NCBI GenBank assembly: GCA_046538485.1
Contig: JBKHIT010000021.1
Location: 11,730-75,729, forward strand
Source of the DNA: Candidatus Brocadiia bacterium
GTDB taxonomy: Bacteria > Planctomycetota > Brocadiia > SM23-32
Length of the DNA: 64,000 nt
Direction of reading: 5' to 3'
This document shows, piece after piece, positions 37,553 to 47,046 of the stretch (positions are counted from its first letter, which is position 1; the number at the start of each line of letters is the position of its first letter). Below the pieces are notes generated by a model. The model worked only from the letters and a program-made list of their open reading frames with translations. It searched no databases and was not told where the DNA came from. The translations under genes were made by a program, and so were the position numbers.

Positions 37553-39106
37553 TCAGTGCACTCCATGCGCGAACATTTCGCGTGTCGGGTGGGGGTAATC
37601 CTGCAGGATGATCAGATCCATGAGCCGGTCTCGCAACTCTCTCCGCAGATCGCCGTGGTCAGACGAACCCGCGAGGTTGTGCTGTTCGGCTGGATCCTCC
37701 TGAAGATCAAAAAGCTGCTCGCCGGAATCGCCCGGATACATCGTATAGCGATACCGGTCCGTGCAGATCGTGCGGGCCCAGTGGTGGGGCGAAGCATTGC
37801 TGATGCTGTTATAACTCTCCGAATACGCCGCGTCACGTTCCCCGCCGGCTCCCTCGCAGCAGATTGGAAGCAAAGATTGTCCGGGGAAACGTTCCGGTTC
37901 GTCCTGCAAATACGGTCCGAGCACCGGCGGCGACGGTCTTTCCAACCCTGCCATATCGAGGACGGTGGGGAAGATGTCCTCGAGCTGAACGATTTCCCCT
38001 CGATATCCCGTTTCGACACCCGGGCCTGAAATCATGAGGGGGATTCGGATGCACGCGTCGTAGTGATACTCTTCTTTCCCGGTGAAACCGTGTTCCAGCA
38101 GCAGTTCCCCGTGGTCGGCGAGGAAAATAATGTAGGTATTTCCCAACCGTCCGGTTTCCTCGAGTGCATCCATCACTTTCCCCAGCTGGTAGTCCAGGTG
38201 CGCGATATCAGCGAAGTAATAATGTCGTCGCGTCCGCCAGTTCTCGGGGATCGATCGGGCGCTCTTCCACGGCGGCAGATCATCAAAAGCCTCCGGACGC
38301 AGCGGATCGTCCGGCCATTCGGGAGCGGAAGGCTCTGGGATCAAATCCGGCTCGACAAGATCCATATATTCGGCTGGAGGGCAGGACGGGCCGTGAGGTT
38401 GAACGTAGCTGATATGGGCCAGGAGGGGTTCCGCGGGCTCGGCCCCCCGGATAAAATCGAGCGCATGGTCCGTGATCCAGTGGGTCTGCGAAATGGCCTC
38501 GGGGAAGGGGAGTGTGTATGCCTGGGGCGTGTTCTCGGGGAAATCGTCAGTGGCAAAATCGAACTCGTCCCGGATTGTTTTGATCCGCGAACTCAGATCT
38601 CGCTTTTCGGGTCCGTAACTTTTCAGTTCCGGTATATCGGCGCACCAGATCGTGGCCAGTGCGGATTCAAAATGTTCGGCGTGATTCTGCTCGAACCAGT
38701 CAAGCCACTCCCCCGCCCGCGGATCCTCCGTGATGTGAGTGACATCAAAACCATACTCGCGATAATCCGGATGCACACCGGCGAAATGGGGATGGAGGTG
38801 TACTTTGCCGAAAGCTGCCGTACTGTAGCCATCCTTCTGCAGCATTTGCATGAACGTCGGCAGATTCGGATCGAGTCTGTAGCCGTTTTGGAGCACGCCG
38901 TGTTGCCGGCTGTTCAGGCCCGTTGCCAGCGTCGCCCGGGCGGGCATGCAGACGGGGTTGCTGGTGTAGGCTTTACTGAAAGTTGCACTGCGGTTACGCA
39001 ACCGGTCTAAATTCGGTGTTGGGACGCATTTGGTAGCTCCTTCTTCAAGCCAGCGTGCCGAGAGCTGATCGACCATGAAAAACACGATATTCGGTTTTTG
39101 AGGCAT
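37553..39106 (-). CDS. formylglycine-dependent sulfatase (S1)
   Basis: KPNIVFFMVDQL, CMPAR, GKVH, PH, ADHG, QLFDLQEDPAEQHNLA. Confidence 0.93.
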   Translation of the reverse strand: MPQKPNIVFFMVDQLSARWLEEGATKCVPTPNLDRLRNRSATFSKAYTSNPVCMPARATLATGLNSRQHGVLQNGYRLDPNLPTFMQMLQKDGYSTAAFGKVHLHPHFAGVHPDYREYGFDVTHITEDPRAGEWLDWFEQNHAEHFESALATIWCADIPELKSYGPEKRDLSSRIKTIRDEFDFATDDFPENTPQAYTLPFPEAISQTHWITDHALDFIRGAEPAEPLLAHISYVQPHGPSCPPAEYMDLVEPDLIPEPSAPEWPDDPLRPEAFDDLPPWKSARSIPENWRTRRHYYFADIAHLDYQLGKVMDALEETGRLGNTYIIFLADHGELLLEHGFTGKEEYHYDACIRIPLMISGPGVETGYRGEIVQLEDIFPTVLDMAGLERPSPPVLGPYLQDEPERFPGQSLLPICCEGAGGERDAAYSESYNSISNASPHHWARTICTDRYRYTMYPGDSGEQLFDLQEDPAEQHNLAGSSDHGDLRRELRDRLMDLIILQDYPHPTREMFAHGVH

Positions 39107-39144
39107 TTTCAGGTTTCCCGGGTAAAAATCAGGCGGATGGCATT

Positions 39145-40647
39145 TTACGGTTCGATTGGTTCTTCCATTTTATGCGCAACTTCAATGGCACGGAGGAGCG
39201 CTTTAGCTTTATTGAGCGTTTCTTCGAATTCCCGTTCGGGCACGCTATCGGCGACAATTCCCCCGCCGGCCTGCACGTAAGCGTCCCGGCCCTGAAGCAC
39301 AACAGTCCGGATGGTGATACAGGTATCCATATTCCCGCTGAAATCGAAATACCCGACGGCCCCGCCGTAAGGTCCTCGTTTCGTCGGCTCCAGTTCATCG
39401 ATGATCTCCATAGCGCGCACTTTTGGTGCTCCGGTAAGCGTACCGGCGGGGATACATGCCATAAGAGCATCGAGCGCATCGTTATCATCGGTCAGTTCGC
39501 CGGTCACATTGGAGACGATGTGCATGACGTGCGAGTAGCGTTCGATGACCATAATTTCATCGGCACGAACGGTCCCGTACTGACAAACTCTGCCAAGATC
39601 GTTTCGGCCAAGATCAACCAGCATCACATGCTCGGCCCGTTCTTTGGGATCAGAGAGCAATTCTTCCGCGAGTTCTTGATCTTTTTCTTCGCTCTGTCCC
39701 CTGGGCCGGGTGCCCGCGATAGGACGGACCGTGGCAGTTCGGTTCTCGACGCGCACCATCACCTCGGGGGAAGAGCCCACGAGATGGAGGTCATCCATTT
39801 TGAGCAAAAACATGTAGGGGGAAGGATTGATAACGCGAAGCGCCCGGTAGATATCCAGCGGCGAAGCGGAAGTCTGCACGCCGAGTCTCTGGGAAGGGAC
39901 CACCTGGAAGATATCGCCGGCGCGGATATATTCTTTGCATTTCTCCACTCCCTCCAGATAATCCTGTTTCTCGAAATTTGACTCGAATGGAATTGTGATT
40001 TCGCCCTGAGGCGTAATATCATCACTGAGGTTGCTGACCGGTGTCCGGAGACGCGAAATTAATCGGTCAATACGCGCACAGGCATCATGGTAGGCCGTCT
40101 CGGGCTTTTCTCCATCAGTTCGGACACTGCATACGACCTTTATGGTCTTATTGAGGTAATCAAAGATCAATATTTCATCAAAGAACATGTAATAGATATC
40201 GGGGATATCTCGATCGTCGGGCGGACAGTCCGGCAGTTCTTCGACGAAACGGACGACATCATAGGCCATGAATCCCACGGCACCGCACGAGAAACGTGGC
40301 AGGCCCTCTACTGGAGCGAGTTGAAAACGGGAGAGATAATCCCGAAAGACGGGGAATGGATTATCGGTCTGGATGGTTTCGACATCGTCCCCTTCGCAGA
40401 TTTCAACGGTATTGCCCTGGGCTTTAAAAAGAGCAAATGGGGAGCTTCCCAGGAAACAATATCGACCGATTTTTTCGGGACCGCTCGCACTTTCCAGCAG
40501 GAAAGCATAATCACCGTCAGCCATTTTTTGGAACGCCGAAACAGGGGTCAGAGTATCGGCCATTAATTGGCGATAAACCGGGATAACGTTCCCCTGCTGG
40601 CTCTTTTCCTTGAACTCACTCAGTCCGGGGCAATACTGTGGTTTCAT
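39145..40647 (-). CDS. trpE: anthranilate synthase component I
   Basis: LLES Trp-feedback motif, NPSPYM, GSSPE, PIAGTRPRG, AEHVMLVDLGRND, GAPKVRAM. Confidence 0.93.
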   Translation of the reverse strand: MKPQYCPGLSEFKEKSQQGNVIPVYRQLMADTLTPVSAFQKMADGDYAFLLESASGPEKIGRYCFLGSSPFALFKAQGNTVEICEGDDVETIQTDNPFPVFRDYLSRFQLAPVEGLPRFSCGAVGFMAYDVVRFVEELPDCPPDDRDIPDIYYMFFDEILIFDYLNKTIKVVCSVRTDGEKPETAYHDACARIDRLISRLRTPVSNLSDDITPQGEITIPFESNFEKQDYLEGVEKCKEYIRAGDIFQVVPSQRLGVQTSASPLDIYRALRVINPSPYMFLLKMDDLHLVGSSPEVMVRVENRTATVRPIAGTRPRGQSEEKDQELAEELLSDPKERAEHVMLVDLGRNDLGRVCQYGTVRADEIMVIERYSHVMHIVSNVTGELTDDNDALDALMACIPAGTLTGAPKVRAMEIIDELEPTKRGPYGGAVGYFDFSGNMDTCITIRTVVLQGRDAYVQAGGGIVADSVPEREFEETLNKAKALLRAIEVAHKMEEPIEP

Positions 40648-40784
40648 AAGCCGAACGCCTTTCCTCTTTGGGATGCCACAGTTAAAAAGAGTCAACCCTT
40701 GCACGCAACCCCTTATTGGGGCTATAACAATAGGTAGATGGAGAAAAGCAAAACATCTTTTCCGCTTTTTGCAGGAGGTTTCGG

Positions 40785-41111
40785 ATGGCAGCTTACGTTG
40801 TAGGCCTGATCACGGGCGCTATTGTCACCATTTTCCCGCTTATTTATGCAATGAGCTTCGACCATTGTCAGGCTCTGGTTGTCAGTGCCGGCAAAAGTCC
40901 CACCGCGCTCGCTCCTTCAGTCTCCCCTGGTTTGGTGACCACCATCACCATTATCGGAGCAGTCGTCTTACTTCTGAATGCAGCCATGCTCGCCTTTACG
41001 GGACTCAGCAACCTGGGCTTTGCCAGCGGCGAAACTCAAAAACCGGAGGAGTCACCTGATGAAGAACCCGACGAATCCGCTGAGACCGAACCTCAGGAAC
41101 CATCTTTTTGA
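40785..41111 (+). CDS. small two-TM membrane protein with acidic tail
   Basis: AGGAGG SD; two hydrophobic segments. Confidence 0.7.
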   Translation: MAAYVVGLITGAIVTIFPLIYAMSFDHCQALVVSAGKSPTALAPSVSPGLVTTITIIGAVVLLLNAAMLAFTGLSNLGFASGETQKPEESPDEEPDESAETEPQEPSF

Positions 41112-41413
41112 TTCATCCTGTCGGTGCGTGGTCTTTTCCTTCGCGGAAAACCTCGTCCGCAGTGAGGGCAGCGCCACTTCGGCCTTGGCCGCAGCAGAAT
41201 AATTCCAAGCATTCCAGCTGCTATCGCGCCCCCCCAGGCCGTATCCAATTGGCCGGGAGGCACAATCCATAGCAGGCCGACACCAACGAGCAAAAAGGCA
41301 ACACCGCCCACCCGAAGAAGCCAATCCGCCTCCTCCCTGACAAGCTCTACTTTACAGTCAGGGCATTGCGGCCATGGATCGATAGACTGATCTTCGGCCT
41401 CGGGTTCACTCAA
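41093..41413 (-). CDS. small two-TM protein flanked by CxxC motifs (split zinc ribbon)
   Basis: CPDC...TM-TM...CPHCG; starts 3 bp after the leuA stop. Confidence 0.65.
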   Translation of the reverse strand: MSEPEAEDQSIDPWPQCPDCKVELVREEADWLLRVGGVAFLLVGVGLLWIVPPGQLDTAWGGAIAAGMLGIILLRPRPKWRCPHCGRGFPRRKRPRTDRMNQKDGS

Positions 41414-41416
41414 TGA

Positions 41417-42988
41417 TCACATCCCGTGGAAACTTTCTGAAATCTCATCACCGTTGCGGCGCGCTTTGGCAATTCGATTCACAGCGGCCAGATATGCGCG
41501 TGCGCTGGCTTCCAGGATATCGGTGCTGGTAGCGCGGCCCCGCACCGTCATATCGTCCGAAATCACTTCCAGCGAGACTTCACCCATAGCATCCTTCCCG
41601 CCGCTAATCGCTCGGATGGAATAATCCGTTAGGTCACAACTAATACCAGTAATTCTATCGATGGCTTTGTATACCGCATCAATGGGCCCATCGCCGGTGC
41701 TGGCATCGGTTTGTTTGTTCTCCTCCACTTCAAGCTGAACCGTAGCGGTTGGTATAACACTTGTGCCGCTGGATATATGGAAAGTAATAAGCTGGAAAAT
41801 ATCGGGGGCTTGTTCGAGTTCTTCTCTCACAAGCGCTTCAACATCGCCGTCGAATATCTTCTTTTTCTTGTCCGCAAGCGATTTGAACTCCTGGAAAACG
41901 CGTTCAAATTTTTCACCCTCGAGTTCAATACCCAGTTCTTCCAATCGTTGTCGGAACGCGTGGCGCCCGCTGTGCTTTCCGAGAACTAACCTCGTCTTCT
42001 CAACGCCAACATCCTCCGGCCGCATGATTTCGTAGGTGCTTTTCTCTTTCAGCATGCCGTCCTGGTGAATACCGGCCTCGTGAGCAAATGCATTCTCACC
42101 CACGATAGCCTTATTCCGCTGGACCGACAACCCCGTTACATGGCTGACAAGCCGACTGGTTTTCATGATCTGTTCGGTTCGGATCCCCGTCTCCACGCCA
42201 AAAATATCCCTGCGGGTTGCAAGGGCCATCACCACCTCTTCGAGGGAACAATTCCCGGCACGTTCTCCGATCCCATTGATCGTGCATTCAACCTGTCGGG
42301 CACCCCGGCGCACGGCTTCCAATGAATTTGAAACGCCCAGGCCGAGATCGTTATGGCAGTGCACGCTGATGACAGCCTCCCCGATATTTGGGACTTCCTG
42401 GACGAGGTTCTCAATCGTTGCGCCGAACTGGGCGGGAATAGCGTAGCCCACAGTATCAGGGATGTTCACCGTCTTTGCGCCGGCGTCGATAACAGCTTCG
42501 ACAACTTCTCGAAGAAAATCATGCTCGGTGCGGCTGGCATCTTCCGGGCTAAATTCCACATCCTCGCAGAATTTTTTGGCCAGGCGAACGCCTTTGACCG
42601 CCAGCTTAAGAATCTCCCCTCTCGCTTTTTTGAGTTTGTGTTTCCGATGAATCTCGCTGGTCGCCAGGAAAACGTGTATCCGCGGGTGCTTTGCCTCTTC
42701 GAGAGCCTGTGCGGCCCGATCAATGTCCTCAGAGACACAACGCGCAAGTCCGGCAATTACAGGGGTTTCCACACTGCGGGACACTTCTTTAACGCTCTCA
42801 AAATCGCCTTCCGAAGCGATTGGAAAGCCCGCCTCTATCACATCAACCCCCAATCGCGAAAGCTGTCGTGCTACGTGGATTTTCTCTTCGATGGTCATGG
42901 AACAACCGGGCGCCTGTTCTCCGTCGCGGAGGGTGGTATCAAAAATCGTGACACGGTCGTCTGTTTCACTCTGGTTTTTTTCACTCAT
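41417..42988 (-). CDS. leuA: 2-isopropylmalate synthase
   Basis: DTTLRDGEQ, HCHNDLG, GERAGN, HEAGIHQDG, LGKHSGR, C-terminal regulatory domain. Confidence 0.97.
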   Translation of the reverse strand: MSEKNQSETDDRVTIFDTTLRDGEQAPGCSMTIEEKIHVARQLSRLGVDVIEAGFPIASEGDFESVKEVSRSVETPVIAGLARCVSEDIDRAAQALEEAKHPRIHVFLATSEIHRKHKLKKARGEILKLAVKGVRLAKKFCEDVEFSPEDASRTEHDFLREVVEAVIDAGAKTVNIPDTVGYAIPAQFGATIENLVQEVPNIGEAVISVHCHNDLGLGVSNSLEAVRRGARQVECTINGIGERAGNCSLEEVVMALATRRDIFGVETGIRTEQIMKTSRLVSHVTGLSVQRNKAIVGENAFAHEAGIHQDGMLKEKSTYEIMRPEDVGVEKTRLVLGKHSGRHAFRQRLEELGIELEGEKFERVFQEFKSLADKKKKIFDGDVEALVREELEQAPDIFQLITFHISSGTSVIPTATVQLEVEENKQTDASTGDGPIDAVYKAIDRITGISCDLTDYSIRAISGGKDAMGEVSLEVISDDMTVRGRATSTDILEASARAYLAAVNRIAKARRNGDEISESFHGM

Positions 42989-43100
42989 TATTCGAATCTT
43001 TCAGATGGAGTCGCCGTTGAACAGGAGAATAATCTTCAGTATCGACCCAAATCCAGTTCGAGCGACGCAGTCCGCACGGGGCGAACTTTCGTCGCGACAT
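42981..43100 (-). CDS. 39-aa upstream ORF overlapping the leuA start
   Basis: GGAGGAG SD; MSRRKFAPCGLRRSNWIWVDTEDYSPVQRRLHLKDSNNE*; ATGAGTGA overlap with leuA. Confidence 0.45.
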   Translation of the reverse strand: MSRRKFAPCGLRRSNWIWVDTEDYSPVQRRLHLKDSNNE

Positions 43101-43182
43101 ACGCTCCTCCCGGTCTCATGCTATCTGATCTATGATTTTGCTCCACCATTTTCATTCTGCTTCTTGGCGTTCCAGCTCGCAC

Positions 43183-43218
43183 AAAAAATGCCCTACAGCC
43201 TTGAGAGGCCTGCAGGGC
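43183..43218 (-). terminator. attenuator intrinsic terminator
   Basis: GCCCTGCAG-GCCTCTCAAGG-CTGTAGGGC-ATTTTTT. Confidence 0.85.
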
Positions 43219-43248
43219 GCGATTCTCTTTCTCCGAAACAGCCAGACC

Positions 43249-43338
43249 CTACCTGCCTCGCTTTGGCCTGGACAACCAGAGCGAAGTGAGCCACAGGTTC
43301 AAAAGCCACAAACGAGACTGGGTCTGCTCGTTCCTCAT
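43249..43338 (-). CDS. Leu/Trp-rich attenuator leader peptide
   Basis: MRNEQTQSRLWLLNLWLTSLWLSRPKRGR*; lies between promoter and terminator upstream of leuA. Confidence 0.8.
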   Translation of the reverse strand: MRNEQTQSRLWLLNLWLTSLWLSRPKRGR

Positions 43339-43347
43339 AACAACCGC

Positions 43348-43376
43348 ATTCTAAGCCAAAAAAACGTGCCCGTCAA
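43348..43376 (-). promoter_or_regulatory. sigma70-type promoter of the leuA leader
   Basis: TTGACG (43376-43371), 17 bp, TAGAAT (43353-43348). Confidence 0.8.
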
Positions 43377-43442
43377 GGTCTGATTTACCGGGTACCGGGA
43401 CGCTGCTGATGATTGTAATGGCATCCGGGAACCCGGGAAAAG

Positions 43443-44171
43443 CTACTCAACGGTTATAACCGTTGAAGCTGCCCGCTGATAGTCGACAAAACTGATATCG
43501 GCGTGTGAGCGGTAACGCCACAGCCAGCCCCGGTCCCATCGTCCGTTTCCATTTAGATCCCGGAATGCTTCCCCCGGGACGGGGTTGCGGCCGTCCGGGA
43601 GGCCGTCGCCGTTCCGATCCCCCCCCGGCAAAACGGGTTCGGGATCGACGAGAAACTTTTTGCTTCCTCCCGTGCGATCCGATAGATAGCCGTAATATTT
43701 CAGCATGAGAGCGCCGCTGTCGACGGGAAGCTTTTGGGTTTCGATCCGGCCAACGTCACCGGGAATATATTTCACGAACGGCAGAAGGGCGTAGAGGATA
43801 AGCACAAAACCGCTGACAACGAGACCGTTGAATACCCCTAAAATTCCTCCTGCCACGGGATCCACTATACGATAGGAAGGGAGATCCGGCGATGTAAGCT
43901 TTCGTCTGAGTGTTCCTGCCACTCCGACGGTCACGCCGAAAACAGTGGCAAAAACGATCATCCTCATATAAAGCGGTCCGGGATGGAGTTTGAAACGCGT
44001 GATGAGCCCGGTCATAAGACATGTCAATGGATCACACAGGGAAAGAGCCAGCACGAAACCCAGCAAATTGCGCATCAGCGCATAGACGGAGTCAAAGAAC
44101 CCTGACGAAATTCCCCCGTAGATCATAATGCCAAAGATAACGAGAAGAAGAAGAATGGCGACGACCTGCAT
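43443..44171 (-). CDS. CvpA-family membrane protein with C-terminal DxNGDG-type loops
   Basis: four TM helices, DPVAGGILGVFNG; DRNGDG and DLNGNG. Confidence 0.7.
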   Translation of the reverse strand: MQVVAILLLLVIFGIMIYGGISSGFFDSVYALMRNLLGFVLALSLCDPLTCLMTGLITRFKLHPGPLYMRMIVFATVFGVTVGVAGTLRRKLTSPDLPSYRIVDPVAGGILGVFNGLVVSGFVLILYALLPFVKYIPGDVGRIETQKLPVDSGALMLKYYGYLSDRTGGSKKFLVDPEPVLPGGDRNGDGLPDGRNPVPGEAFRDLNGNGRWDRGWLWRYRSHADISFVDYQRAASTVITVE

Positions 44172-44188
44172 TTCGGCCCTCCACGGTT

Positions 44189-45901
44189 TTATTTTTTCAA
44201 TATTCGGCGTATTTCTTTCAGCGTAGTTACCCCTTCCTGCACTTTCAGAAGGGCATCCTGATAAAGTGTTCTGAGTGCGTCACTGCCGGCTGCTTTTTTT
44301 ACCGCATCGGCTGAGACGCCTGTTTGTTGCATCACCTGGTGGACTCTGTCATTGAGTATCAGCATCTCGAAAACACCTGTTTGCCCTTTAAACCCGGTAT
44401 TCAAACACGCTTCGCAACCGACGGCCCGGAACCATTCGCCGGCATTTTCGGGATCAATATTGAGCTTTTCAAGCAATTTCGGATTCGGTGCCACCGGTTC
44501 CTTACAATCGTCGCAAAGCGTCCGCACGAGACGTTGCGAGACAACACAACTGAGTGTTTTTGCAGCCACGCCACCGTCCAAACCCTTCACCAGCTGAACG
44601 GTAGCTTCCGGAGCCCCGCCCGCCTGGATAGTCCCGATAAAACGCCCCGTGTCGGTCGGGAAATTCAGCATCTCCACGACGGCTTTTGTATTGACGATTT
44701 CATCCACTGCCAGCACATCCGGTTCCTGCCGCAGAACAGGGGCCAGCGTATTATTCACTTTCTCCGGCGATTTCAGGTCGACCTGATGCCTTTGTATTTG
44801 GCCCAGTTCATGTTCGAGACGGGACTCAAACGTGTGGACGTCGGTTGTGAAAATGTCGATTTCATTCAGCGTGGCATGAAACGTTGTCGTTTTGCCTGAT
44901 CGGGACGGCCCGCTGAACAAAATGCTTCGTCCGGATGTAGCCACCAGCTTTTTTATACGCTGGATCATAGCTTTGTGCATGCCGAGCGCCTCAAGGCCAC
45001 CACGATACAGATCTTCCGTCCAATCTGGCATATTGAACACGACGGCGGCTCCGTGCTGCGCTTTGCGTCCTCTTACCTGTATTGACACGCTTTCACCTCC
45101 CTGGATATTGGCTTTAAGTTCCGCGCGGGCTTTCCCTTTTCGCCCGAGCCCCAGGAATTGAGCCACACATGCCACCACAAGTTTCCCGTAATCCAGATCA
45201 AGAGAATCGAATTTCTGCATTACGCCATATAGCCTGAACAGAACCGCGAATTCTTCCTCACCGGGTTCCAATCGCATCGCCTCGGCATCAGCCTCACATG
45301 CCTCTCCGATTAGATTTTCCAGTGTGTCGGCCGCATCAGCAAAACGTTCTTTTTCAGCGACCCAATCGGACAGCTCGCGGCCCGAAGAATCTTCCAGGGA
45401 GACCCGAGGGCTCACGCGTGCGGTCGCCGTTCCCCCTGCAGGTCCTTTGACTGAACTCTCGGGCGCACAGAGCCATTCCGGACCGATACGGAACTGTTCG
45501 GGCACTACGGCATTTCGAAGCCAGAGATAATATACAAAAACGCCGCCTACGCCGAGCACGAGTACCAGAAAGCAAATCGGGTGAAGTAAAAATGTCAGCA
45601 TGACTCCGAAAAGCCCTGTGCCGACAAAAATTGTACACCATTTTCGGAAACCCATTCCGACGCCCAGAGCATCGTCTGCCGCCCAGGCAGAGAGCAACAA
45701 CCAGCCAAATATGGACGGAGGAATAAGAATTAACCAGAGCGGATGAATATAGAACCCCCCCTGCATTTCAAGCACCGCTGAAACGTCCCCTCCCAACTCC
45801 CCAGCGTAAACGAGCGTGACAAGGCAGAAGAAAACCAAGCCAAAAACAGCGGGTCTAAAAATTTGACCCAGTTCTTGCTGCCGGTACTGATCTCCGTTCA
45901 C
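44189..45901 (-). CDS. GspE/PilB-family ATPase with N-terminal TM segments and degenerate motifs
   Basis: GPSRSGKTTT, LRQEPDVLAVDEI, SQRLVRTLCDDC...GCEACLNTGFKGQTGVFEML. Confidence 0.85.
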   Translation of the reverse strand: MNGDQYRQQELGQIFRPAVFGLVFFCLVTLVYAGELGGDVSAVLEMQGGFYIHPLWLILIPPSIFGWLLLSAWAADDALGVGMGFRKWCTIFVGTGLFGVMLTFLLHPICFLVLVLGVGGVFVYYLWLRNAVVPEQFRIGPEWLCAPESSVKGPAGGTATARVSPRVSLEDSSGRELSDWVAEKERFADAADTLENLIGEACEADAEAMRLEPGEEEFAVLFRLYGVMQKFDSLDLDYGKLVVACVAQFLGLGRKGKARAELKANIQGGESVSIQVRGRKAQHGAAVVFNMPDWTEDLYRGGLEALGMHKAMIQRIKKLVATSGRSILFSGPSRSGKTTTFHATLNEIDIFTTDVHTFESRLEHELGQIQRHQVDLKSPEKVNNTLAPVLRQEPDVLAVDEIVNTKAVVEMLNFPTDTGRFIGTIQAGGAPEATVQLVKGLDGGVAAKTLSCVVSQRLVRTLCDDCKEPVAPNPKLLEKLNIDPENAGEWFRAVGCEACLNTGFKGQTGVFEMLILNDRVHQVMQQTGVSADAVKKAAGSDALRTLYQDALLKVQEGVTTLKEIRRILKK

Positions 45902-45930
45902 ATCGACCTCCGGAATATTATCAAAACCTC

Positions 45931-47046
45931 TCAGTCACCAGATGATGATCGTGACGAGGAAGAGAAGCTAATTCCTTTCAATGCCATCTCCAGAGCGTCC
46001 TTATTCGGCGCGAACTCGCGTGCAACTTTTTTGGTAACAAAATCCTGCTGGATAAGCTTGACGAAAGAAGTGGTCCAGCTTTGCATTCCCTCTTCTTCAC
46101 CTTCCTGTACCAGATCTTCAACCCGGGCATCATCTCCTTCGGCAATCGCTTTGCGGATAGGCGGATTCACCCACATCATCTCAACCGCCGGAACCCGCTG
46201 TACCTCATCACGAAACGATGGTACCAATCGCTGACAGATAATAGCCTTCAAATTGAAGGCCAGAGACTGGCGGATAAACTTATGCCTCTCAGTGGGGAAA
46301 AAATCAAGAATTCGCCCGAAGGTAGCCTTAACGCTGGAAGTATGCATTGTCGTCAAAACAAGATGACCCGTCTCCGCGGCAGTCAAACAAAGTTTAAAGG
46401 TCTCTTGCCCTCGCATTTCGCCGATCAACATCACATCGGGATCCGCGCGGACACCCGCCCTGATTGCTTCGGGCCAATCATGAAAATCAAGACGGTACTC
46501 CCTCTGGTTGATAATACTATTAGCATCTTCGTAGACAAATTCTATTGGATCCTCGAACGTTAATATATTACGCCGGTGTTTCTTATTCATTTCATTCAAC
46601 AGCCACGCAAGTGTTGTCGACTTTCCGACGCCCGTGATACCACATACGAGGCACAACCCCTCGTTGAAATCCACCATACGCAAAAGATCTTCAGGCAAAT
46701 GCAGTTCCTCCCGCGAGGGCACAACATTTTCCACGAGTCGAGCAACAAGAGAGATACGCCCTCTCTGCATAAAAACCGAGACTCTGACCCGGCCACCTTC
46801 GAACTCGTGGCCAAAATCCATACTGCCCTGTTCCATAATACGGTCCACTTTTTCGTCGCCCAACCAATCCCTTGCCAGCGCTTCGATGTGAGCGGCCGAC
46901 AGCGATTTCCCTTTGAGTCGACGCAGAGTTCCATCAATCCGAAACACCGGTGGGTTCCCTGCTTTCAGATGCAGATCGCTTGCACCCACGGAAGACATCC
47001 GGGAGAAAAGATCGTCGATACGGGGTTCTTCTTCCTCAGCGGCCAT
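45931..47046 (-). CDS. pilT: PilT/PilU type IV pilus retraction ATPase
   Basis: ASDLHLKAG, GITGVGKSTT, EDPIEF, DPDVMLIGEMR, AAETGHLVLTTMHT. Confidence 0.9.
   Translation of the reverse strand: MAAEEEEPRIDDLFSRMSSVGASDLHLKAGNPPVFRIDGTLRRLKGKSLSAAHIEALARDWLGDEKVDRIMEQGSMDFGHEFEGGRVRVSVFMQRGRISLVARLVENVVPSREELHLPEDLLRMVDFNEGLCLVCGITGVGKSTTLAWLLNEMNKKHRRNILTFEDPIEFVYEDANSIINQREYRLDFHDWPEAIRAGVRADPDVMLIGEMRGQETFKLCLTAAETGHLVLTTMHTSSVKATFGRILDFFPTERHKFIRQSLAFNLKAIICQRLVPSFRDEVQRVPAVEMMWVNPPIRKAIAEGDDARVEDLVQEGEEEGMQSWTTSFVKLIQQDFVTKKVAREFAPNKDALEMALKGISFSSSSRSSSGD

Follow-up and report, generated by a model that had tools for sequence, protein, structure and literature searches.

A predicted leader-peptide attenuator with conserved leucine and tryptophan codons upstream of leuA, with trpE in synteny, in a family of uncultured Planctomycetota

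Introduction

Leader-peptide attenuation is a textbook mechanism of bacterial gene control, the described cases of which come mostly from Proteobacteria, Actinobacteria and Deinococcus. In the enterobacterial leuL system, a short open reading frame (ORF) with leucine codons, the rare CUA among them, precedes leuA; a terminator and an antiterminator compete, and charged tRNA-Leu is sensed through the position of the ribosome. Regulatory codons for several amino acids are found in the thr leader (Thr and Ile), the ilvGMEDA leader (Ile, Val and Leu) and the ilvBN leader (Val and Leu), and to our knowledge the described leader-peptide attenuators sense either one amino acid or metabolically linked ones. 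The present study deals with a putative attenuator upstream of leuA, with trpE further downstream, the leader peptide of which contains codons for both leucine and tryptophan. It is located in a stretch of 64,000 nucleotides (nt) from a Candidatus Brocadiia bacterium (assembly GCA_046538485.1, contig JBKHIT010000021.1, positions 11,730 to 75,729 of the forward strand), which is referred to below as the window.

For Deinococcus deserti, 14 leader peptides translated from leaderless transcripts have been described, the genes behind them being tRNA-synthetase and amino-acid genes (PMC4007540), and in Corynebacterium glutamicum leader peptides precede trpE, leuA, ilvB and aroF (PMC3890552); the leaderless transcripts begin at the start codon or 1 nt before it. 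Attenuators of the classical type are described upstream of trpS and leuS in Streptomyces and upstream of pheST in gamma-proteobacteria (PMC1262725), while Planctomycetes appear in the accessible text of PMC4833913 only within a survey of the distances between leader genes and structural genes. In a literature search that left most subscription journals uncovered, no paper was found that deals with attenuation in Planctomycetes or Phycisphaerae, or with a mixed Leu/Trp leader.

Results

Organization of the leader region

All parts of the element are read on the minus strand, and positions are those of the window throughout. The predicted promoter (43348-43376) consists of a −35 box TTGACG (43376-43371) and a −10 box TAGAAT (43353-43348) with a 17-nt spacer, and is the top sigma-70-like match (10/12) within 39000-44500, a region in which the scan returned 7 sites as compared to 3.4 ± 1.9 for shuffles. 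The start codon ATG (43338-43336) lies 9 nt past the −10 box, without a Shine-Dalgarno sequence, and opens the leader ORF MRNEQTQSRLWLLNLWLTSLWLSRPKRGR (43249-43338), which comprises 29 codons, 7 of them for Leu, followed by TAG at 43251-43249, and stands ahead of leuA. Codons 10-22 (43273-43311) form the putative regulatory block, in which 7 Leu and 3 Trp codons are arranged as three 15-nt repeats of the form LWLxx (LWLLN, LWLTS and LWLSR), the Trp codons being codons 11, 16 and 21 and the Leu codons UUG (three times), CUU, CUG and CUC (twice), with no CUA. The six reading frames of the 5.19-Mb assembly contain 7,404,125 stop-free stretches of 13 codons, of which only one has 7 or more Leu together with 3 or more Trp codons, and this one is the leader block.

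Segment 1a, CAGACCC (43320-43326), is complementary to GGGUCUG just past the stop codon and would form the base of an anti-antiterminator hairpin. Segment 2, CGAGGCAGGUAGGGUCUG (43243-43260), holds the stop codon UAG, which falls inside GUAGGGUCUG (43252-43243), and may take as its partner either segment 1 (GUCUCG / CAGACCC) or the 5' arm of the terminator. The intrinsic terminator (43183-43218) is made up of a 5' arm GCCCUGCAGGCC (43218-43207), a loop (43206-43201), a 3' arm GGCUGUAGGGC (43200-43190) and a run of six U (43188-43183); a simple terminator scan missed this hairpin because of a bulge in its stem. The spacer between the terminator and the leuA start (42989-43182), about 195 nt in length, contains a small hairpin GCGACG...CGUCGC. 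It is long as compared to the approximately 40-100 nt of most relatives, long spacers being found also in the relatives G012, G005 and G023. The downstream gene leuA encodes 2-isopropylmalate synthase (41417-42988; NCBIfam NF002086, 804.1 bits, cut-off 532) and is followed on the same strand by trpE, encoding anthranilate synthase component I (39145-40647, with its ATG at 40647; TIGR00564, 588.9 bits, cut-off 517.7). When 40000-46000 was scanned with cmscan against Rfam at E values up to 10, four chance matches were obtained, none of them within the element.

Folding of the transcript yielded the three alternative structures of a classical attenuator. The 1:2 fold is a 90-nt leader hairpin of −37.4 kcal/mol, the base of which pairs CAGACCC and GUCUCGUUU with AAGCGAGGC...GGGUCUG, and the pairing of segment 2 with CAGACCC is present in the minimum-energy fold. 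A 60-nt transcript without the 3' arm folds at −27.3 kcal/mol into the 2:3 antiterminator, in which GAGGC and GUAGGGU pair with GCCUC and GCCCUGC of the terminator 5' side. The 3:4 terminator hairpin has a predicted energy of −20.9 kcal/mol, and none of 200 shuffles was equally stable. The original prediction, made from the letters of this DNA, had placed here a promoter, a near-leaderless ATG, the peptide and a hairpin with six U, had put leuA and trpE downstream on the same strand, and had given segment 2 the choice between CAGACCC and the terminator 5' arm. The individual parts were found where it put them, to the base, both gene assignments exceed the curated NCBIfam cut-offs, and both of the predicted folds were obtained.

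Conservation of the leader among relatives

LeuA was searched in 40 relatives and the DNA upstream of it was scanned, which revealed a small ORF conserved in the window's own family, for example MEQALTKPARSLALRWLALPWLWPGR. An alignment of 13 leader regions (A1) was folded with RNAalifold, which returned the terminator and an inner hairpin, and a covariance model (R1) was built from it. R1 matched 27 of the 31 genomes of the family, the genome of the window included, with scores up to E = 1e-41, and none of 101 genomes from ten other families of the class, a search to which, as one of more than 40 genomes, stricter filters applied, so that weak relatives may have escaped. A pattern scan of 185,579 species genomes yielded 84 stretches, of which 28 were examined, the remaining 56 being mostly from Streptomyces with an identical match length of 67 nt. 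Among the 12 examined matches labelled Planctomycetes, Planctomycetota or 'Brocadiaceae', 11 are leaders. The other 16 examined matches (Streptomyces, Nocardioides and others) were rejected as chance hits in GC-rich DNA with no leader context; the Streptomyces matches of the scan (L075, L080 and about 55 more, all of 67 nt) fall in an apparent coding region ...REITREAGGVCDIEHT..., a GC-rich coincidence and not a leader. From a metagenome pattern scan that gave at least 120 stretches, 80 were checked and two proved to be true leaders by R1, one on a contig already present in the genome scan and the other new (MSSRTNQPRLVALRLWLPLARLWPGH), with its end at the contig edge. Sequencing runs that contain the DNA of the window, which occurs in mat or salt-lake habitats, were looked for as well, and six DNA data sets from two studies came up but none of RNA.

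An alignment of 22 leaders (A2) shows that the promoter, the ORF, the antiterminator and the terminator are retained in all of them. In 22 of 29 leaders examined, the −10 box (at least 5 of 6 positions matching) ends 9-10 nt ahead of the ATG, with a TTGACA-like −35 box; two others (G018 and G042) have 14-18 nt and a GGAGG before the ATG, and five have weaker −10 boxes. Judging from this spacing, translation of the leader of the window probably starts about 2-3 nt from the 5' end of its transcript. The leader ORFs of the family comprise 24-29 codons and end in UGA in 19 of the 22 leaders, mostly three codons earlier than in the window; the window, G012 and G008 read on to an in-frame UAG inside GGUAGGG. 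In all 22 leaders the stop codon adjoins or sits within the antiterminator strand, segment 2, with the motif GAGGCGGGUAGGGUCUG, and the terminator of the family has the form GCCCUGCAGCCUC...GGCUGCGGGGC followed by a U run. Within codons 12-21 of the leaders of most relatives a 15-nt (5-codon) direct repeat, CUNGCNCUANNCUGG, occurs twice, and could reflect a constraint at the level of either the peptide or the RNA. The distance to leuA is exceptional in G020 (L050), where a stretch of about 1.9 kb, in which two methyltransferase-like ORFs of 156 and 143 aa are found, separates a leuA-type leader from leuA; in its sister species G001 the leader stands about 200 nt from leuA.

In A2, paired cells make up 97.2% of the terminator helix and 91.6% of the inner hairpin. 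Helix 1a, which lies in a poorly aligned stretch, is paired in 68.8% of cells, with changes on both sides at 3 of its 7 pairs. The antiterminator helix is paired in 87.1% of cells, as compared to 37-51% in controls with the partner shifted by 1-3 columns; changes on both sides are seen at 3 of its 12 pairs, with A-U replaced by G-C in two leaders. Covariation across the leader helices thus appears modest, most helix pairs being invariant and hence uninformative on pairing either way. A scan of column pairs further revealed that UAGGGU of segment 2 has another complement in ACCCUG of the Pro20-Trp21 codons, a copy of the terminator arm and hence a further candidate for 'segment 1'.

The element might be taken for a chance small ORF beside the terminator of the upstream CvpA-like gene, with no regulation involved. 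Such a reading could draw on the failure of the simple scan to flag the hairpin and on the folding of the whole 171-nt leader, which barely beats shuffles (z = −1.91, with 8 of 200 as good). However, the CvpA-like gene ends at 43443 with a hairpin of its own, and a strong promoter separates it from the leader ORF. The leader unit is also kept before leuA despite differing upstream genes, the CvpA-like gene being common to just one of the 17 other family loci (L004), and both the R1 score of 1e-41 and the uniqueness of the codon block in the genome speak for a maintained element. A chance origin is contradicted by these comparative data and is hardly credible. The ribosome-mediated attenuator that had been proposed for this locus, with its 1:2/2:3/3:4 geometry and its apparently leaderless or near-leaderless start, is found conserved upstream of leuA in the 22 aligned leaders. 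To the extent that sequence comparison can tell, the element is a conserved leader-peptide transcription attenuator, in which ribosome stalling and read-through would be the operative steps.

Leucine codons of the leader

Leu12, Leu14, Leu17 and Leu19 are kept in 18-21 of the 22 leaders, with third positions that take any of A, C, U and G. Over codons 11-26, the third codon positions are the more variable, with an entropy of 1.12 as compared to 0.71 and 0.77 for the first and second. Among the 109 Leu codons of the leaders, 35 (32%) are the rare CUA, as compared to 4 of 578 (0.7%) in 17 leuA ORFs of relatives; in the genome of the window CUA makes up 2.3% of Leu codons. Sensing of leucine by the leader is well supported by these comparisons, and the element is very probably a Leu-responsive attenuator of leuA.

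The same scaffold ahead of other genes

The weaker matches of R1 correspond to the same scaffold ahead of other genes. Ten such leaders precede ilvB (seven by NCBIfam, three by ORF size or leader sequence alone) and have Val runs, as in MKRTATQTSVVVVL, MIRTSTLIVVVVL and MQRTATQSSVVVVV; six, from six genomes, precede trpS and are Trp-rich, as in MRSTADQPARSLGVWRLIWPWPRPVA, MKRQPADTRRLWFPAWRWHKPAA and MERNPAHPAARAARWWRNWLWQAPEPRGG; and one precedes a gene for DAHP synthase. Correspondence between the codons of a leader and its cargo gene is a signature of ribosome-mediated attenuation, and leaves no other mechanism to be seriously considered for the leuA element. Homology between the leuA and trpS leaders is evident.

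A search of the window's own genome for ilvB and trpS leaders found none. The same genome has, outside the window (contig C3, about 73960-74290, minus strand), a second candidate leader-peptide attenuator upstream of DAHP synthase, with a promoter CTTGACA...TAGGAT, an ORF MPEHREIAPESVAYGESVRAGRYFAFWYFYFAPQGRRLAGG with Phe, Tyr and Trp codons (RYFAFWYFYF) and a terminator CCCCGAAGUCAGCUGGCUUCGGGG followed by seven U; an element of the same type occurs in G023 (L057), with the frame FAFRYFYYVF. In G021, the trpS leader, trpS, the leuA leader and leuA stand in tandem on one strand (L071 / L043, contig C242), and trpE follows on the contig that holds the remainder of leuA.

Tryptophan codons and linkage to trpE

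Three Trp codons are present in 10 of the 22 leaders of A2, two in another 10, one in G008 and none in G016. Of the 22, 18 retain Trp16 and 20 retain Trp21, interleaved with Leu codons, while codon 15 is free; in the window, a third UGG has been acquired in register, at codon 11. On this distribution the Trp codons are conserved rather than accidental, at least two being present in 20 of the 22 aligned leaders. Conserved Trp16 and Trp21 among the Leu codons provide codons for two amino acids in one leader, with a constraint on RNA structure as the alternative cause of their retention.

Of 24 leader-bearing genomes, 22 have trpE behind leuA in the same orientation, a link that in two of the 22 spans a contig break inside leuA; the remaining two genomes (G023 and G046) end at contig edges. 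No leader-bearing genome of the family (n = 24) has trpE demonstrably unlinked. In G005, the leader of which has 6 Leu and 2 Trp codons, trpE starts about 10 nt after leuA, and in G004 the gap is about 120 nt. In G009, a leader with 4 Trp codons and 1 Leu codon precedes trpS, which is followed by a small membrane-protein gene and then by trpE; no leuA orthologue was found in this 92%-complete assembly. In G025, a single genome of a sister family, the leader before leuA contains Leu codons and no Trp codons (MPVFVRRASLLRLSRGLLLLSGAVGQG), and trpE is on another contig. In G009 and G025 the codons of the leader follow the genes behind it; the contrast between Trp codons and linkage of trpE is confined to these single cases, with G016, in which trpE is linked behind a leader devoid of Trp codons, as a counter-example.

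In the window, two genes lie between leuA and trpE, neither of which figured in the original prediction. One of them, orf106 (41093-41413, minus strand, 106 codons), overlaps the leuA stop codon and encodes a zinc-ribbon-like (CPDC...CPHC) membrane protein with a hydrophobic middle; its Pfam match is below threshold, and a counterpart was found in the relative G012 only. It overlaps by 19 nt the 3' end of the other, the small membrane-protein gene (MAAYVVGLITG..., 108 aa; 40785-41111, plus strand), which is convergent with leuA/orf106 and divergent from trpE, and for which no Pfam family scored above threshold. The promoter of the small gene in the window consists of TTGCAC (40699-40704), an 18-nt spacer and TATAAC (40723-40728), and a promoter of this gene is the only conserved one of the leuA-trpE gap. 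On the trpE strand, 13 of 14 leuA-trpE gaps gave no sigma-70-like promoter by criteria under which the leader promoters score 10-12/12, and a crude scan of the gaps on this strand gave no canonical or leader-quality terminator. A separate Trp leader directly before trpE was found in none of 25 sampled relatives of the class, four of which have ORFs with at least two Trp codons and no leader context.

The genes upstream of the leader (43443-47046, minus strand) encode a CvpA/Colicin-V-production-like membrane protein (Pfam PF02674, 51 bits), a GspE/PilB-like ATPase and a PilT-family ATPase, and have no relation to the attenuator.

Discussion

Proposed mechanism

Transcription would begin about 7 nt after TAGAAT, and the 29-codon leader would be translated from an almost leaderless 5' end. 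An unhindered ribosome would reach the UAG and sit on segment 2 (GAGGCAGGUAGGGUCUG), which after release of the ribosome would re-pair with the early codons. With segment 2 masked or re-paired, the terminator (43218-43190 plus six U) would form and leuA would stay untranscribed. Under a lack of charged tRNA, the ribosome would stall in the LWLLN-LWLTS-LWL block and leave segment 2 free to pair with the terminator 5' arm once this is made, and RNA polymerase would read into leuA. The conserved UGG codons, two or three in number and placed among the Leu codons, would open the switch on a shortage of Trp-tRNA as on one of Leu-tRNA, and the read-through transcript would continue, antisense through the small opposite-strand gene, into trpE.

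The stalled ribosome was modelled as an unpaired footprint of 28 nt. When transcripts are truncated ahead of the 3' arm, stalls at about codons 10-23 make the antiterminator likely, and its probability drops at the last codons and the stop, a result that persists when the RNA behind the ribosome is masked as well. This modelled co-transcriptional profile fits the classical kinetic scheme.

One leader for two pathways

Control of the leuA-trpE transcript by both leucine and tryptophan is the reading we prefer, with a rough probability of 0.45 and a close rival in control by leucine alone. In its favour are the retention of Trp16 and Trp21, the position of trpE behind leuA, their close spacing in G005, the leader codons of G009 and G025, the near absence of promoters and terminators found on the trpE strand of the gaps, and the lack of a separate Trp leader before trpE in the 25 sampled relatives. 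As the UGG codons share the stall-sensitive stretch with the Leu codons, a shortage of Trp-tRNA should open the switch mechanically. Whether trpE would benefit depends on its co-transcription with leuA, and control of trpE by the leader is plausible. The proposal that one leader serves leuA and trpE thus stands in part: the Trp codons and the leuA-trpE synteny are conserved, whereas the placing of trpE on the attenuated transcript meets an intervening opposite-strand gene at 14 of 18 loci.

Several observations weigh against dual control, in addition to the marginal folding of the whole leader given above. The first of these come from the modelling: in equilibrium folding with a masked ribosome, the terminator is preferred at nearly every stall position, and the co-transcriptional model is permissive, the Leu and Trp positions not being separated by it. 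Others concern the Trp codons themselves. Trp21 is encoded by the UGG of a CCCUGG stretch that repeats the CCCUGC of the terminator arm and pairs with CCAGGG (91.6% of cells) and with UAGGG of segment 2, and both UGG-to-CGG changes at this codon adjoin a G partner. In G016 both Trp codons are lost (UGG to GGG and UGG to CGG) and in G008 one remains, with trpE still linked in each, and a weak candidate leader in G023 has none. Ala13, Ala18, Pro24 and Gly25 are conserved as well as Leu and Trp, likewise with free third positions, so that conservation alone shows no sensing. Since the leuA and trpS leaders are homologous, the UGG codons may also be inherited from a common ancestor. The last set concerns the gap. 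At 14 of 18 leuA loci of the family, that of the window among them, the opposite-strand small gene separates leuA from trpE and has its own Shine-Dalgarno sequence and a promoter of the TTGCAA-18-TAGAAT type. Its pairing with trpE even behind trpS, in G009, suggests an independent divergent unit. A divergent pair is usually read as trpE having its own promoter, possibly one invisible to a sigma-70 scan, and weak candidates on the trpE strand of the window lie at 40978-40950 and 40680-40708.

These observations can be assembled into an account in which the element is an attenuator of leuA (and orf106) responsive to leucine only. The gene trpE would be transcribed from its own promoter in the divergent region, and the UGG codons would reflect RNA design (CCCUGG/CCCUGC and repeated CUGGC units) together with shared ancestry with the trpS leaders, any response to Trp being a tolerated side effect. 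In favour of this account are the opposite-strand gene and the small gene-trpE pair that stays intact in G009, the double involvement of Trp21 in helices, the loss of Trp codons in G016 without loss of linkage, and the retention of Trp23 in just 12 of the 22 leaders, besides the equal conservation of the Ala, Pro and Gly codons. However, the counterpart of the hairpin in ilvB leaders, which is untranslated there, reads CCCGGG and not CCCUGG, so that structure alone does not demand the U. Trp16 is retained beside a freely varying codon 15, and the in-register UGG at codon 11 of the window is a gain. The near absence of detectable promoters and terminators on the trpE strand of the gaps and the close spacing of leuA and trpE in G005 also argue against separate transcription of trpE. 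We regard control by leucine alone as a real possibility, somewhat short of an even chance.

A different explanation for the conserved Ala, Pro and Gly codons would be that the nascent peptide, L-A-L-x-W-L-A-L-P-W-x-x-P-G-x-stop, acts in the ribosome tunnel in the manner of TnaC or SecM and slows release at the stop codon, which would mask the antiterminator; it may then sense a free amino acid instead of, or besides, tRNA charging. Ala13, Ala18, Pro20, Pro24 and Gly25 are indeed present in 16-20 of the 22 leaders with variable third positions, and the stop codon abuts or lies inside the antiterminator strand in every one. However, the window departs at those very residues (LWLSRPKRGR as compared to LPWLWPGR) and ends in UAG, RNA pairing accounts for the Pro and Gly codons, from which the CCC...GGG hairpin is formed, and the bias to rare codons points to tRNA-dependent stalling. 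An action of the nascent peptide, whether in place of tRNA sensing or beside it, is improbable.

The preferred reading of dual control can be extended to the family as a whole. In this tentative, wider form, a leaderless leader would integrate the charging of Leu- and Trp-tRNA and drive a transcript of leuA, antisense small gene and trpE, on a scaffold re-coded for each cargo (Val for ilvB, Trp for trpS and trpS-trpE, Leu and Trp for leuA-trpE), and the peptide may contribute.

Significance

The leaders described here appear to form a compact family of paralogous, apparently leaderless attenuators, before leuA, ilvB and trpS and, with aromatic codons, before DAHP synthase, in uncultured Planctomycetota. 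The leuA leader carries conserved codons for two unrelated pathways, and the matching genes are in conserved synteny. The natural variants G009, G016, G005 and G025 serve as built-in controls. If the dual reading is true, attenuators can couple unrelated pathways and transcription of an operon can pass through an antisense gene embedded in it; should the reading fail, the locus is a clean case of RNA structure freezing codons that merely look meaningful. Re-coding of the scaffold, if true, would provide a natural series of re-programmed attenuators. The leuA, ilvB, trpS and aroF leaders should also aid the annotation of metagenome-assembled genomes, and are candidates for a new Rfam RNA family.

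Comparison with known systems

Like leuL (Rfam Leu_leader, RF00512), the family element has an ORF with Leu codons, CUA among them, before leuA, and competing hairpins. Unlike leuL, it has no match to RF00512 or to any other Rfam family at E values up to 10. Instead of forming a run, its Leu codons are spread over a 5-codon repeat, with Trp codons interleaved, and it is apparently leaderless rather than led by a Shine-Dalgarno sequence, with the stop codon inside the antiterminator strand. It resembles the thr, ilvGMEDA and ilvBN leaders in that one peptide has regulatory codons for more than one amino acid; in those systems the amino acids share a pathway or products, whereas Leu and Trp belong to unrelated pathways.

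The targets described for C. glutamicum (PMC3890552) are the set found in the planctomycete family, except for trpS in place of trpE. The leaders of D. deserti and C. glutamicum, which those of the family resemble in their apparently leaderless start, belong to other phyla, and no mixed Leu/Trp leader is described in the available portions of PMC4007540 and PMC3890552. The trpS leaders of the family, found in six genomes, are of the kind described in PMC1262725 and are paralogues of the leuA leader; the leaders described there sense a single amino acid. Set beside these systems, the element is, as far as its sequence indicates, a family-specific, apparently leaderless and re-codable attenuator scaffold; in its leuA member, codons for both Leu and Trp are conserved, as is the synteny with trpE.

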